From the IMG/VR virus record IMGVR_UViG_3300048861_000020, positions 1 to 45,969 of that record: 45,969 nucleotides of DNA; one strand, 5' to 3'. Made by a program: the position numbers and the translations under genes. The notes under the pieces were generated by a model. It was not told the origin of the DNA, did no database searches, and saw only the letters and a program-made list of their open reading frames with translations. Positions 39,830 through 43,392 of the stretch are shown in pieces (positions within the stretch are counted from its first letter, which is position 1; every line of letters begins with the position of its first letter). The DNA is from a virus.

Positions 39830-40245
39830 GGCTGCTTGTCCTCGCCGCTCTGCGCATCTTGCATTAGGGCGCGGATGGCGGTTGCACACTCGCCTGCGCC
39901 GTCCGATTGGCCGCCCACGTGCTGGTTTCCTCTCAATGGGCTGTCAGCGTCCGCGTGCTTGAACATCGACCAATACTCTTTCTCGATCTCATCGCACCTC
40001 TGCGCCGCCCGCTCCAACGCAGCGCGCTCGGCTTCTTTCCGAGCCAAATTCACGGCTTCGTCAATCAACCGGTGCAAGTCGCTGCTGTCAAGTAACGCGC
40101 GTCGGCCGCCTTTCCACCCGGACATAAAAGCAGCGTCCACTGCGTTCGGCTTGCTAGTGTGATTGATCCAGTCTGCAAACTCAGATGTTGCGGTCGGCAT
40201 CTGTGTGTAGATCAATTCGGTTGCTACTTCCGTTGGGATTTTCAT
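39826..40245 (-). CDS. hypothetical protein (139 aa)
   Basis: ORF track. ATGA-coupled. Confidence 0.65.
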   Translation of the reverse strand: MKIPTEVATELIYTQMPTATSEFADWINHTSKPNAVDAAFMSGWKGGRRALLDSSDLHRLIDEAVNLARKEAERAALERAAQRCDEIEKEYWSMFKHADADSPLRGNQHVGGQSDGAGECATAIRALMQDAQSGEDKQP

Positions 40246-41315
40246 TGCTTCTCCTTATCGGCTTGCATAGCTGCGTCGCGTGTCATATCGGTGATCGCTT
40301 GCGAGCAATCCCACGGGCGGTAATCGCCGGGCAAGCCTTCGACGACGGCCGCGACTTCGTGAAGGATCGCAATGCGCGATGCATCGCTTGCATCATCCGG
40401 CGTGGGGTGGGCGGGAGGTTCGAGGTACACAATGCGTTTGCATTCCGCGTCAATGTGTTCGTACTGGGCCTTGGTTACGTCACCCCAAGCCTCGTCGATC
40501 ATTTGAATCTGATAGATCGGCTTCCTCTCCGCCAATACGCGGGATTCGTAAAACGCCAGAGCGTAGTCGCGCATGTTATCCATCGTGTAAAGCTTGTCAC
40601 CGCGCTTGACGCCGACTTGTGCGAGCATGCTGTCGTTGTCCATTACTTCTTCGACCTTGCAAAACGCGACGGGCGGCTTATCCAATACGCGGGATTCGAG
40701 GGCGGCTTGCCATGCCGCATATTGAGCATCAAGTGGAGCGTCTTGCTCTGCAGACTGGGCGAGAGGGGCGAACTGCGCGGCCAGCAGCCCAAGACCGCCG
40801 ATGAACGAGCGCACCGTGTAGAAGTCCGTCTCACGGTCGGAATTGCGTTCCAGCGACGCGAGCAATGCTCCGATCAGTTCATCGCGCTTCGCGTCAGGGA
40901 TGAACGACAGGAAAGGCTCCGTCGCGTTGTCCGGGTCGTGGCGCTCATACGACTTCACCGCCTCTTGCTTGTCGCTCGGAGTGGCGAGAGGTGAGGCACG
41001 CACGCCGCTATCGATGTCGCACTCGCCTTCGGGGCATACAACGCCGTCATGTTTAGCGGCATAGCAAATGTCGAAATGCCCGGTTCGGCAGCTTTTGCCC
41101 TTCAGCCCGGCGGTGATCGGATTGGGCGCGGATGGGGCGAGGGCAGGGCGGCGGTTCCAGCCTTCGATAGCGGCATCCCTGCTCGGATATGAGCCGGTGT
41201 TCGTTCCGCATTGCCGACACGTGTGATAGTGCCCATATGGAGCAATCTGCGCATCATCGAAGTGGTAGTCGGCAGAGCCACCGCAGAACGGGCACGGCTT
41301 CAGTTCTTGTGTCAT
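40242..41315 (-). CDS. Lar-like (restriction alleviation) zinc-ribbon domain fused to a roughly 290-aa uncharacterised region
   Basis: MTQELKPCPFCGGSADYHFDD...HTCRQCGTNTGSYPSRDAAIEGWNRR matches the Lar-family pattern. ATG 41315 follows GAGAGAGAA. An alternative ATG at 41348 overlaps the upstream stop. Confidence 0.7.
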   Translation of the reverse strand: MTQELKPCPFCGGSADYHFDDAQIAPYGHYHTCRQCGTNTGSYPSRDAAIEGWNRRPALAPSAPNPITAGLKGKSCRTGHFDICYAAKHDGVVCPEGECDIDSGVRASPLATPSDKQEAVKSYERHDPDNATEPFLSFIPDAKRDELIGALLASLERNSDRETDFYTVRSFIGGLGLLAAQFAPLAQSAEQDAPLDAQYAAWQAALESRVLDKPPVAFCKVEEVMDNDSMLAQVGVKRGDKLYTMDNMRDYALAFYESRVLAERKPIYQIQMIDEAWGDVTKAQYEHIDAECKRIVYLEPPAHPTPDDASDASRIAILHEVAAVVEGLPGDYRPWDCSQAITDMTRDAAMQADKEKQ

Positions 41316-41344
41316 TTCTCTCTCGCAATAGGTGTTTCGCCAAT
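41311..41344 (-). repeat. 34-bp leader repeat, copy 1 (32/34 identical to 42093-42126)
   Basis: Minus strand reads ATTGGCGAAACACCTATTGCGAGAGAGAAATGAC, which includes the SD and start codon. Confidence 0.9.
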
Positions 41345-41347
41345 CCA

Positions 41348-42097
41348 TCAGACGGTCAACAAATCGACTTGCCGCGATCGTTCGTCGAGCAGGCCGACGT
41401 AGTCAGGGTTCAGCTCGCATCCGACGAACTGGCGCCCGAGCTGGCGTGCGGCGATTCCCGTCGATCCGCTACCAATGAATGGGTCGATCACGATCCCGCC
41501 GGGCGGCACGGAATTGGAGATCAGCGGCGCAAGGATCCCGAGCGGCTTCTGCGTAGGATGCAACGCACGGCCATGCTCGTTGGCGACGTCGATCACGCTG
41601 CGCTGCAGCTTCGGGCCGCCGTCTTCGCTGACGTAGCTGCTGTATTTATCGATTCTTCCGGTATGCGTCGGGCGGGTCTTGCGACGAACGGTCTTCGCGG
41701 TCGCATCGTTTGTGTACTGGGGCTCCTTGAATACATCGGCCCATGCACCTCGGTAGAACTGCACGGCGTGCTCATGAACACGCCGAAATCGATCGTTCAT
41801 GAAGCCGGTTCCGTTCTGCTTTTCCCACACGATGTCCTGCGCGTACTTGAAGCCGAACGCGGCCATGTCGTCGAAGATGTCGGCGATGAATCGCATGCTG
41901 CCAAACACCCAGATCGATGCGGCGGGCTTCAAAACACGCGCGACCGGCGCAATCCAGCCGTCAGTGCGTCGATCCCAGTCCAAACTAGTGTCACCGTAGG
42001 GCGGATCGGTGATGCAGGCGTCTGCAAATGCTTCAGGCCATGACGCCATGATCTGTCGGCAATCTCCTGCGTGTACCTTGTTGAGCCAGTCAGTCAT
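41348..42097 (-). CDS. DNA methyltransferase, N6-adenine/N4-cytosine (beta class)
   Basis: ITDPPYG near the N-terminus. HPTQKPLGILAPLI...IDPFIGSGSTGIAA near the C-terminus. Confidence 0.9.
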   Translation of the reverse strand: MTDWLNKVHAGDCRQIMASWPEAFADACITDPPYGDTSLDWDRRTDGWIAPVARVLKPAASIWVFGSMRFIADIFDDMAAFGFKYAQDIVWEKQNGTGFMNDRFRRVHEHAVQFYRGAWADVFKEPQYTNDATAKTVRRKTRPTHTGRIDKYSSYVSEDGGPKLQRSVIDVANEHGRALHPTQKPLGILAPLISNSVPPGGIVIDPFIGSGSTGIAARQLGRQFVGCELNPDYVGLLDERSRQVDLLTV

Positions 42098-42129: not shown

Positions 42130-43161
42130 TCAGGCGTCATCGGCCGAGTAGGGTGAATGCTGCCGCAGCCACTCGCGGTACCTGGCCGTTTCCAAGGGCT
42201 CTAATGCGGTGTGCCCGATGGGCCATCCCATCAACCACTCGACCCATTCCGGGTTCAGCTGGCCACCGTCCGAAGCCATAACTGCGTGGTCGATTCGGTC
42301 GTTCGCTCGGCTCTTCCCGGTCTTGCGCGTAAGTGCCGCGGGCGACGATCCTTTGCTCGCGCTCGCGCACGGCGTCGGCCACATATTCTTGCGGGCCATC
42401 ATTGCCAACGTCGGCCGCTCCGCAGCTCCGGCGCTCGGACTCTTGTTGATCCGACCGCTCCCGGCGTCGATTGCGCATGGTGTCGGAAACATCCGCGACG
42501 ACACGGCCTCGATCAGCGTCCCACCCTCGCGTCCCTTGCGCGGCGTGATACGTCCGCCCTTGTCCGCAAGGCTCGCTGTCGGCGTAGGCCAGAGCTTCAC
42601 TTCCGCGCTCAGCTTTGGCTCGCCGCGGCTGTTCCACTTGCCAGCCGCTCGCTCGATCGCATCGTCCGCGACGGGCGTTTGCCAGAATCCAGATCCGTTC
42701 TCTGAGATGGGGAGCGCCGGTATCTGCCGCAGAAACGACTCCCCATTCCGCATCGAACCCCATCTCGGCCAAGTCTCCGAGAACTCGTCCGAGTCCCCGA
42801 GAAGTGAGCATTGGGCTGTTTTCCACTTCGACTCGGACGGGCTGTACCTCGCGAATGATCCGAGCCATATGGGACCAAAGGCCGCTTCGCTCGCCGTCGA
42901 TTCCTTCGCCGGCGCCGGCTGCGCTGATGTCTTGGCACGGAAATCCGCCAGCAACGACGTCAACAATCTCTCGCCATGGTCTTCCGTCAAAGGTGCACAC
43001 GTCATCCCAAATCGCGAAAGGGGGAAACGTTCCGTCGTTTTGTCGTGCCACAAGCACGGCTTGGGCGTAGGGTTCGCGCTCGACGGCGCAGACGCATCGG
43101 TTTCCCCGAAGCTGACCGGCGAGAATGCCTCCACCAGCGCCCGCGAAAAGATGAAGCTCAT
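42130..43161 (-). CDS. fully overlapping +1-frame ORF (343 aa) carrying WPTP-type repeats and a motif-IX-like segment; coding status unresolved
   Basis: No stop for 343 codons. ATG lies 8 nt after the same GGAGG. FWQTPVAD, LWPTPTAS, MFPTPCAI, MWPTPCAS and LNPEWVEWLMGWPIGHT. Higher third-position G+C than frame A by hand count. Confidence 0.35.
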   Translation of the reverse strand: MSFIFSRALVEAFSPVSFGETDASAPSSANPTPKPCLWHDKTTERFPLSRFGMTCAPLTEDHGERLLTSLLADFRAKTSAQPAPAKESTASEAAFGPIWLGSFARYSPSESKWKTAQCSLLGDSDEFSETWPRWGSMRNGESFLRQIPALPISENGSGFWQTPVADDAIERAAGKWNSRGEPKLSAEVKLWPTPTASLADKGGRITPRKGREGGTLIEAVSSRMFPTPCAIDAGSGRINKSPSAGAAERPTLAMMARKNMWPTPCASASKGSSPAALTRKTGKSRANDRIDHAVMASDGGQLNPEWVEWLMGWPIGHTALEPLETARYREWLRQHSPYSADDA

Positions 43162-43165
43162 TCAC
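42137..43165 (-). CDS. dcm: DNA (cytosine-5) methyltransferase (frame A)
   Basis: LFAGAGGG (motif I), GGFPCQDIS (IV), ENSPML (VI), RERIWILA (VIII), C-terminal RALGNGQVP (X-like). GTG start lies 4 nt after GGAGG. Confidence 0.85.
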   Translation of the reverse strand: MNELHLFAGAGGGILAGQLRGNRCVCAVEREPYAQAVLVARQNDGTFPPFAIWDDVCTFDGRPWREIVDVVAGGFPCQDISAAGAGEGIDGERSGLWSHMARIIREVQPVRVEVENSPMLTSRGLGRVLGDLAEMGFDAEWGVVSAADTGAPHLRERIWILANARRGRCDRASGWQVEQPRRAKAERGSEALAYADSEPCGQGRTYHAAQGTRGWDADRGRVVADVSDTMRNRRRERSDQQESERRSCGAADVGNDGPQEYVADAVREREQRIVARGTYAQDREEPSERPNRPRSYGFGRWPAEPGMGRVVDGMAHRAHRIRALGNGQVPRVAAAAFTLLGR

Positions 43166-43392
43166 GCAGCCTCCGGTGTAATTCGCACGCGATAACGCTT
43201 GCCTTCATCGAGCGTCACGATGATTTCCAGATCGTTCGTGGCCACCAGATACGCGACGGCACCGTTGATGCACTGATGCGTCACGTCCTGCTTCGATGTC
43301 GCCACGCGGCCGATCTTGTCCGCTCGCGACTTGCCGATGAAGATTCGATTCGTCAGCGGCGACATCCACATTTCGAGCTTCGATGCGCTCAT
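43162..43392 (-). CDS. hypothetical protein (76 aa)
   Basis: ORF track. GTGA-coupled to the dcm start. Confidence 0.65.
   Translation of the reverse strand: MSASKLEMWMSPLTNRIFIGKSRADKIGRVATSKQDVTHQCINGAVAYLVATNDLEIIVTLDEGKRYRVRITPEAA

Follow-up and report, generated by a model that had tools for sequence, protein, structure and literature searches.

A putative two-subunit DNA (cytosine-5) methyltransferase encoded in two fully overlapping frames of a temperate phage

The minus strand of IMG/VR virus record IMGVR_UViG_3300048861_000020, analysed here over its whole 45,969 nucleotides (the window), carries two open reading frames (ORFs), designated frame A and frame B, that are both open over about 340 codons behind one shared Shine-Dalgarno sequence. 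Frame B starts 4 nt after the frame A start and overlaps frame A over the whole length (Table 1). Based on sequence and comparative analyses, we propose with a probability of roughly 0.7 that this locus encodes a two-subunit DNA (cytosine-5) methyltransferase (C5-MTase), of which the putative alpha subunit would be translated from frame A and the putative beta subunit from frame B. In the motif-to-domain assignment derived from the M.HhaI structure, motifs I-VIII and X belong to the large catalytic domain, and the target-recognition domain (TRD) and motif IX to the small domain (PMC3404938). [quoted passage not shown] A previous sequence-only reading of this locus had described two complete same-strand ORFs with these GTG and ATG starts, and a GGAGG at 4 and 8 nt from them; the ORF listing reproduced both ORFs exactly, frame B ending at a stop at 42130, and the GGAGG was found as described.

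Complementary motifs and frame-specific selection

The catalytic motifs I (FxGxG), IV (PCQ), VI (ENV) and VIII (QxRxR) of DNA (cytosine-5) methyltransferases were all present in frame A, motif VIII as LRERIW. PF00145 did not align end to end with frame A alone; it matched residues 3-174 only, at profile positions 3-169 of 324, with 102 bits versus a cut-off of 22. In the AlphaFold2 model of alpha, residues 1-168 were ordered, residues 173-326 had a predicted local distance difference test score (pLDDT) of 31-37 and no secondary structure, and the terminal helix reached a pLDDT of 85. The ordered part matched the catalytic domains of M.HaeIII and M.HhaI in Foldseek, and the frame A tail aligned to motif X of the Gordonia phage Lton enzyme. 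The TRD and motif IX were not found on the same polypeptide as motifs I-VIII, as they were conserved only in frame B, and motif X was conserved only in frame A.

No match was found in frame B with Pfam and NCBIfam, and none past motif VIII in a chimera composed of the A, B and A segments in succession, so that the homology of the TRD and motifs IX and X was bridged via Lton, mycobacteriophage Jarcob gp70 and the metagenomic protein P0290 instead of Pfam. Frame B residues 103-316 aligned to Jarcob gp70 across the repeats and motif IX. The core of frame B also aligned with the TP repeats and motif IX of Streptomyces phage Samy, and it showed homology to the TRD and motif IX that Jarcob gp70, Lton and P0290 carry in frame. 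Frames A and B fell into two PHROGs families, phrog_363 and phrog_1008, respectively, both of which are labelled DNA methyltransferase. Motifs I-VIII and X had thus been placed correctly in frame A by the sequence-only reading, as had the TP repeats and LNPEWVEWLMGWPIGHT in frame B. It had also located motif X in the conserved C-terminal part of frame A, which proved to be about 42 residues long (W301 to the end) instead of about 20.

Table 1. Features of the overlapping frames in the window (AF2, AlphaFold2; A3 and B3, third codon positions of frames A and B)
Feature	Coordinates	Strand	Remarks
Frame A ORF, putative alpha subunit, 342 aa	42137..43165	-	GTG start at 43165, TGA stop
Frame B ORF, putative beta subunit, 343 aa	42130..43161	-	ATG start at 43161; +1 relative to frame A
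Shared Shine-Dalgarno GGAGG	43170..43174	-	4 nt to frame A GTG, 8 nt to frame B ATG
Start cluster GTGAATG	43159..43165	-	frame A GTG, upstream gene TGA and frame B ATG
Alpha catalytic segment, A residues 1-162 (putative)	42680..43165	-	wobble at A3; PF00145; ordered in AF2
Motif I, LFAGAGGG	43127-43150	-	frame A
Motif IV, GGFPCQDIS	42923-42949	-	frame A
Motif VI, ENSPML (ENS variant)	42806-42823	-	frame A
Motif VIII, RERIWILA	42680-42703	-	frame A
Alpha linker, A residues 163-300 (putative)	42266..42679	-	unconserved protein, stop-free in 67/67 loci
Alpha C-terminal element, A residues 301-342 (putative)	42137..42265	-	W..EP..RV pre-X element and motif X (RIRALGNGQVPRVAAAAF)
Beta N-terminal extension, B residues 1-156 (putative)	42694..43161	-	over alpha motifs I-VIII; stop-free in 67/67 loci
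Beta functional core, B residues 157-323 (putative)	42193..42693	-	four aromatic-x-TP-x-A repeats (TRD) and motif IX; wobble at B3
Motif IX, LNPEWVEWLMGWPIGHT	42208-42258	-	frame B
Beta tail, B residues 324-343 and stop (putative)	42130..42192	-	over alpha motif X; modest constraint

Frame-specific selection was evaluated by nucleotide diversity at each codon position in 67 non-redundant viral loci. The most variable position was A3 along frame B residues 1-156, which lie over motifs I-VIII, B3 along residues 157-323, from SGLWxTP through GWPIGWTxLKPL, and again A3 from residue 324 to the end, over motif X, so that frame A, frame B and frame A are the selected frames in the three segments, respectively. 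The copy in Burkholderia sp. 8Y, the closest relative with 90-92% identity, differed from the window at A1/A2/A3 by 9/3/21 substitutions in the N-terminal segment and at B3/B1/B2 by 34/2/3 in the middle. These results showed that purifying selection changes from frame A to frame B and back to frame A, with switch points near 42690 and 42200, in agreement with the anatomy that the sequence-only reading had drawn from the motifs.

The protein identity in the unselected frame was then compared with a by-product null made of stop-free synonymous shuffles; this null assumes saturated synonymous sites, and the conclusions were drawn mainly from divergent pairs, with the close-pair count against Burkholderia sp. 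8Y as backing. The frame A middle was at the null (identity 0.13 vs. 0.12, and 0.17 vs. 0.16), although it was never interrupted in any of the 67 loci. The frame B N-terminal half modestly exceeded it (0.42 vs. 0.30), with the extra constraint concentrated in the first 10 to 12 codons and in two more islands, near residues 43-72 and 113-142. This half, taken for off-frame sequence by the sequence-only reading, is therefore mostly a shadow of frame A as supposed, but with islands of its own constraint.

In the last 40 codons both frames exceeded their nulls. Frame B was primary in the motif IX block (identity 0.82 vs. a null of 0.42) and frame A in the motif X block (0.75 vs. 0.46). Within the motif IX block, additional constraint on frame A was found at W301, E304, P305, V310 and R320, and the beta tail had an identity of 0.52 vs. 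0.34, which is modest and secondary to frame A.

Both frames were kept open far beyond the window. Pattern scans returned more than 525 loci from IMG/VR and 224 loci from the GTDB species representatives. Among 84 loci (80 from IMG/VR, three reference phages and the window), both frames were open for 270-350 codons in about 78, and the third frame had 10-28 stops. Both were also open in all 67 non-redundant viral loci and in 68 of 76 genomic loci, as the sequence-only reading had asked of homologous loci; here the G+C content was 0.46-0.65 and the third frame contained 9-33 stops. The hosts of the genomic loci range from Burkholderia, Pseudomonas and Acinetobacter to Sulfuricurvum, Planctomycetota, Saccharibacteria and Akkermansia. 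In a tblastn search against phage records, Acinetobacter, Salmonella and Microcystis phages matched both translations at one locus, where both frames were open from the shared start cluster to almost the same end.

The sequence-only reading had also listed two compensating indels or assembly errors, and chance, as explanations of this layout; chance would mean frames that happen to be open because the DNA is rich in G+C. The window does have a G+C content of 61%, at which long alternative ORFs are common, and an antisense ORF of 328 codons (42209..43195, plus strand) is open as well. However, the same layout recurred in more than 140 independent loci from many phyla, including genes of only 46-50% G+C. 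The unusual length of the open +1 frame, pointed out in the sequence-only reading, was borne out by the controls, as the +1 frame had 8-23 stops in other window genes, 14 in E. coli dcm and 9 in the single-chain Lton gene with 66% G+C. Synonymous-codon shuffling of the conserved frame gave 2.5-3.2 stops per segment in the other frame, and the median probability of no stop per locus was 0.025 for frame B over motifs I-VIII and 0.02 for frame A over the middle, values that should not simply be multiplied, given the phylogenetic dependence among loci. In contrast to frame B, the antisense ORF was not conserved; it was open in 1 of 67 loci, with a mean of about 5 stops, and was rejected as a third gene and attributed to a side effect of G+C. 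These results indicated that the dual-open layout is neither chance nor sequencing error, and an artefact has a practically negligible probability. Four phage MTases that match frame A only in the N-terminal half (H51, H79, H67 and H73) all proved to have frame B as well, over the full length in three of them and as a nested ORF in the fourth; these were dropped as negative controls, and E. coli dcm, Lton and the window genes were used instead.

Two chains, one recoded chain or an unrelated second protein

In the proposed two-chain model, ribosomes would come from the upstream gene or bind the single GGAGG, and would initiate at one of two codons, the GTG of frame A or the ATG of frame B that lies 4 nt downstream. 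Alpha would comprise an S-adenosylmethionine-binding catalytic large domain with motifs I-VIII, a disordered and unconserved linker of about 140 residues, and the pre-X/motif X helix of the large domain. Beta would comprise an N-terminal extension, largely an off-frame shadow of the alpha catalytic domain, followed by a small domain made of the (W/L/F)xTPxA repeats and motif IX. By analogy with the biochemistry of M.EcoHK31I, alpha and beta would associate and rebuild a two-domain C5-MTase, and this prophage enzyme would self-methylate the phage DNA against host restriction. The production of both proteins, their association and DNA methylation are what we infer from the sequence features of the locus.

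The start region is consistent with separate initiation of the two frames. The TGA that ends an upstream 76-codon ORF (43164-43162) shares bases with the frame A GTG and lies immediately before the frame B ATG, and the start pattern [A/G/T]TGAATGAG was kept in most loci. Across loci the frame B start was always ATG, directly after a stop, and the frame A start was ATG, GTG or TTG. The modal spacer from the Shine-Dalgarno sequence to the frame B ATG was 8-9 nt, so that the best spacing is that for frame B. An invariant ATG with a Shine-Dalgarno sequence 8-9 nt away indicates that frame B has a proper initiation site.

Alternatively, two recoding events could yield a single chain. A ribosome that starts in frame A would shift +1 just past motif VIII near 42680, continue in frame B through the TRD and motif IX, and return to frame A by a -1 shift near 42205 for motif X. 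The selection pattern matches this course exactly, and the chimera would read ...RERIWILATPVADD..., like the in-frame ...RERVFVLATPSDASD... of Jarcob gp70; further, the relatives Samy and Jarcob would require just one +1 shift. The single recoded chain would have a mass of about 38 kDa and contain junction peptides, among them RIWILATPVADD and GWPIGHTRIRALGNG. However, no slippery site, zero-frame stop or rare codon is conserved at junction 1, where the frame A codon is simply NAC; the base to be skipped varies (GCC-N-AC), as does the distance to the first TP motif. At junction 2, an X_XXY_YYZ heptamer or homopolymer was found in 0 of 67 loci. Two efficient shifts in one gene are also without precedent in a review of recoding, in which no DNA methyltransferase is listed (Atkins 2016). 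Phase variation or transcriptional slippage was rejected as well, as runs of ≥6 occurred at junction 1 in 10 of 67 loci only, and none of ≥5 at junction 2.

Recoding would also leave unexplained the geometry of the frame B ATG and Shine-Dalgarno sequence, the open frame B over motifs I-VIII and the open frame A over the middle. About 156 open codons of frame B before its core and about 140 open but unconserved codons of frame A are needed by two chains, not by a shifting ribosome, and the unconserved yet stop-free frame A middle fits a linker that is translated through to reach motif X. Further, the pre-X residues of frame A and motif IX of frame B are constrained on the same DNA, so one ribosome pass cannot deliver both, and the chimera would lose the constrained alpha pre-X residues. 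Therefore, frame switching, the first explanation put forward in the sequence-only reading, is not favoured, and we regard a doubly recoded single chain as improbable.

A second alternative is that frame A alone is a methyltransferase or an inactive remnant and that frame B is an independent overprinted protein with another function. Such a protein would fit the frame B products, which are annotated as hypothetical and lack any Pfam domain, and the parts of the frame B N-terminal extension that are under their own constraint. However, the part of frame B under selection shows homology to the TRD and motif IX found in single-chain C5-MTases. No TRD or motif IX is conserved in frame A, whose middle is at the null and predicted to be disordered, which implies that alpha alone is without a DNA-recognition domain. 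An overprinted second protein had been among the earlier explanations and came closest, in that a second protein is predicted, but by its TRD/IX homology this would be the other half of the same enzyme and not a novel protein. A de novo overprinted gene was rejected on the basis that the frame B core has homologues outside the overlap (Jarcob gp70, Lton and P0290). An independent function of frame B is thus considered unlikely.

Several observations weigh against the two-chain reading. The A-B-A selection pattern alone fits a frameshifted single chain equally, and the single +1 shifts needed in Jarcob, split between motifs VI and VIII, and in Samy, split after motif VIII, keep the recoding idea alive for the wider subfamily. 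The roughly 150 largely unselected residues carried in each subunit look wasteful. The AlphaFold2 model of beta alone had a pLDDT of 49 and a predicted template-modelling score of 0.18, values too low to show the small-domain fold. In addition, Pfam recognized neither motif IX nor motif X of this divergent subfamily even in the A-B-A chimera, for which the match ended at motif VIII.

Relatives in one chain and known split or overlapping systems

Relatives of the locus include single-chain and differently split genes. In Jarcob gp70, motif VIII, LPTPxAxDGxGG repeats, motif IX (FSEWMMGWPAGW) and motif X (IIGNGVVP) are in one frame. In Samy (L007), motifs I-VIII occupy their own coding sequence (CDS), and the repeats share with motifs IX and X a frame that is +1 relative to this CDS. 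The Lton gp60 product (L089) has motifs I-VIII, one repeat and motifs IX and X in one frame, and PF00145 matched it end to end over residues 19-360. P0290 (L178) is likewise a full single chain, in which four repeats, motif IX and, farther along, EPDIPRVVSGITERVNRLKAIGDGQVP are all present. Lton and P0290 share with the window the catalytic domain, the (L/W)PTPxAxD repeats, motif IX as xEWxMGxPxGW and motif X as IGNGxxP; they differ in that the later TP repeats and motifs IX and X are in frame with motifs I-VIII, and their +1 frame has many stops and a vestigial ORF.

This vestigial +1 ORF, with two TP repeats just past motif VIII, is kept in Lton, P0290 and the Mycobacterium phage DotProduct, which suggests that the frame excursion after motif VIII may be ancestral to the subfamily. 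In P0290 and P0264, the pre-X element and motif IX occupy successive positions within a single chain. In P0290 (1201-2880), about 110 residues of one frame separate motif IX from the pre-X/X element, and motif IX has a -1 shadow, EPDVGRVVDGVADRLD, that looks like the real pre-X element EPDIPRVVSGITERVNRL. This resemblance suggests that the C-terminal module of P0290 may have been duplicated from a dual-coding ancestor.

Some of these loci showed further variations. In the Jarcob locus (L004 1011-2181), gene 69 terminates as ...GYDAQW-TGA after motif VI and before motif VIII, and motif VIII, the TRD and motifs IX and X follow directly in the +1 frame; one +1 shift at TGG_TGA_T would yield a canonical enzyme. 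Many relatives in the Jarcob cluster are annotated as two 'DNA methylase' genes. In DotProduct (L090, about 900-1450), a LAGLIDADG-type homing endonuclease ORF that lies in the +1 frame interrupts the C5-MTase gene between motifs VI and VIII, and the ATG of a beta-like ORF (MEPIATWNP...) directly follows the endonuclease stop. In P0264, P0265, P0269, P0275 and P0280, the passage from frame A into frame B sequence lies elsewhere, namely past motif IV, past motif VI or at GYDARW, and these switches could be assembly indels, pseudogenes or further natural split variants.

The closest known system is M.EcoHK31I of E. coli, which recognizes YGGCCR and was compared here by its published description (Lee, Kam & Shaw 1995, via PMC2836561 and PMC3404938). 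Its beta subunit is encoded wholly in another frame inside the alpha gene; alpha carries motifs I-VIII plus X, beta carries motif IX, both are required in vitro and in vivo, and the N-terminal part of beta matters for association with alpha (PMC2836561, PMC3404938). The window thus resembles M.EcoHK31I in the alternative-frame beta within the alpha gene and in the division of motifs I-VIII and X versus IX. However, the M.EcoHK31I beta is shorter and nested, whereas the beta frame of the window is as long as that of alpha (343 vs. 342 codons) and its start adjoins the alpha start. The TRD of M.EcoHK31I has been assigned, by prediction, to alpha, whereas the conserved TRD of the window is in beta. 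M.EcoHK31I is also part of a restriction-modification system, whereas the window gene is an orphan in the early region of a prophage. A search of E. coli genomes returned four prophage copies only, and under the match no restriction gene was annotated next to them. Proteins of about 175-180 residues ('short beta') were considered as M.EcoHK31I-sized betas and rejected; the one inspected, P0267, was a gene call on a truncated contig.

M.AquI is another natural two-polypeptide C5-MTase split in the variable region, and its split is linear: alpha bears motifs I-VIII plus a portion of the TRD, and beta the remaining TRD with motifs IX and X (Karreman & de Waard 1990, via PMC3404938). In the window, motif X stays with alpha and the ORFs overlap completely, and no GN motif was found in the beta tail past motif IX, as an M.AquI-type split would have. 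Samy is nearer to M.AquI than the window is.

Similar to prfB, dnaX and the phage tail chaperone G/GT, the locus has functional protein information in two frames of one gene. These genes have a defined and conserved shift site, and their zero frame usually stops soon after it. In contrast, no conserved shift-prone site was found at either junction in the 67 loci, frame B has its own initiation site and both frames run to the end. The phiX174 genes and lambda Rz/Rz1 are further cases of same-strand out-of-frame overlap of two expressed proteins, and the window would be comparable in this respect. Their products are unrelated and one is usually de novo, whereas the frames of the window appear to be complementary halves of one ancestral enzyme and overlap over the whole gene.

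Spread, annotation and genomic neighbourhood

Literature searches for a phage-wide dual-frame C5-MTase architecture found no description of it. In Paenibacillus phage annotations both nested CDSs are called without comment, and a P. larvae phage paper lists two cytosine MTase genes, also without comment. Most likely, the layout is one known from M.EcoHK31I that appears to be common here to thousands of phages, and what is new would be the total overlap and the TRD in beta. The beta core matched 8144 cluster representatives at E ≤ 1e-3, and in-frame PF00145 was present in only 7 of the top 149. The hosts of the 'short phage Dcm' group, which comprises phrog_363 and phrog_1008 with about 8000 cluster representatives, extend from Actinomycetota to Pseudomonadota, Planctomycetota and Saccharibacteria. 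The chances are about even that this whole group consists of obligate alpha/beta heterodimers from fully overlapping frames, in which one shared ribosome-binding site would fix the subunit ratio and the beta extension would have its own function, e.g., docking to alpha.

If this holds for the whole group, few conserved same-strand dual-coding genes known from prokaryotic viruses would be as long or as widespread as these, and half of the gene in each genome is now a 'hypothetical protein' or uncalled. Frame A homologues are annotated as 'DNA cytosine methyltransferase'; more than 6000 frame B homologues are all 'hypothetical protein', none with a Pfam domain. Under the two-chain reading, thousands of phage and prophage 'hypothetical proteins' would be the DNA-recognition subunit of a methyltransferase, and specificity predictions from the annotated 'DNA cytosine methyltransferase' ORF would use a chain without a recognition domain. 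As gene callers and third-position G+C heuristics choose one frame, methylome-to-gene, REBASE-style and anti-restriction work would be affected. The loci would also provide a large natural data set with about 300 codons open in two frames and roughly 100 under double protein-level constraint, as well as many natural heterodimeric C5-MTases of the M.EcoHK31I type, which has already been used for building targeted methyltransferases.

The third-position G+C was 0.75 in frame B vs. 0.59 in frame A over the whole gene, and 0.78 vs. 0.62 over the distal part, close to the approximately 79% and 60% that had been counted by hand in the sequence-only reading. Gene callers often choose frame B in G+C-rich genomes, probably because of its higher third-position G+C. 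In Acidovorax phage Alfacinha3 (L088 512-1678) and Ralstonia phage Gerry (L174 839-1522), only frame B is annotated, as 'cytosine-specific methyltransferase' in one of the two records and as 'hypothetical protein' in the other; frame A is fully open and unannotated in both. In Acinetobacter phage ABMM1 (L001 1497-2411), the dual-coding gene has 50% G+C vs. 42% for the whole 3.9-kb locus, an excess that fits a two-frame stop-free composition constraint, or recent acquisition.

The split C5-MTase locus of the window has an integrase, a Lar-like restriction-alleviation protein, an N6/N4-type methyltransferase and RecT as neighbours, and it sits in the early region of a temperate phage (prophage). 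Directly downstream on the minus strand, 40242-42097 encodes the N6/N4-type DNA methyltransferase (41348-42097, phrog_67) and the Lar-like-domain protein (40242-41348), and these two genes together with the split C5-MTase form an anti-restriction cluster.

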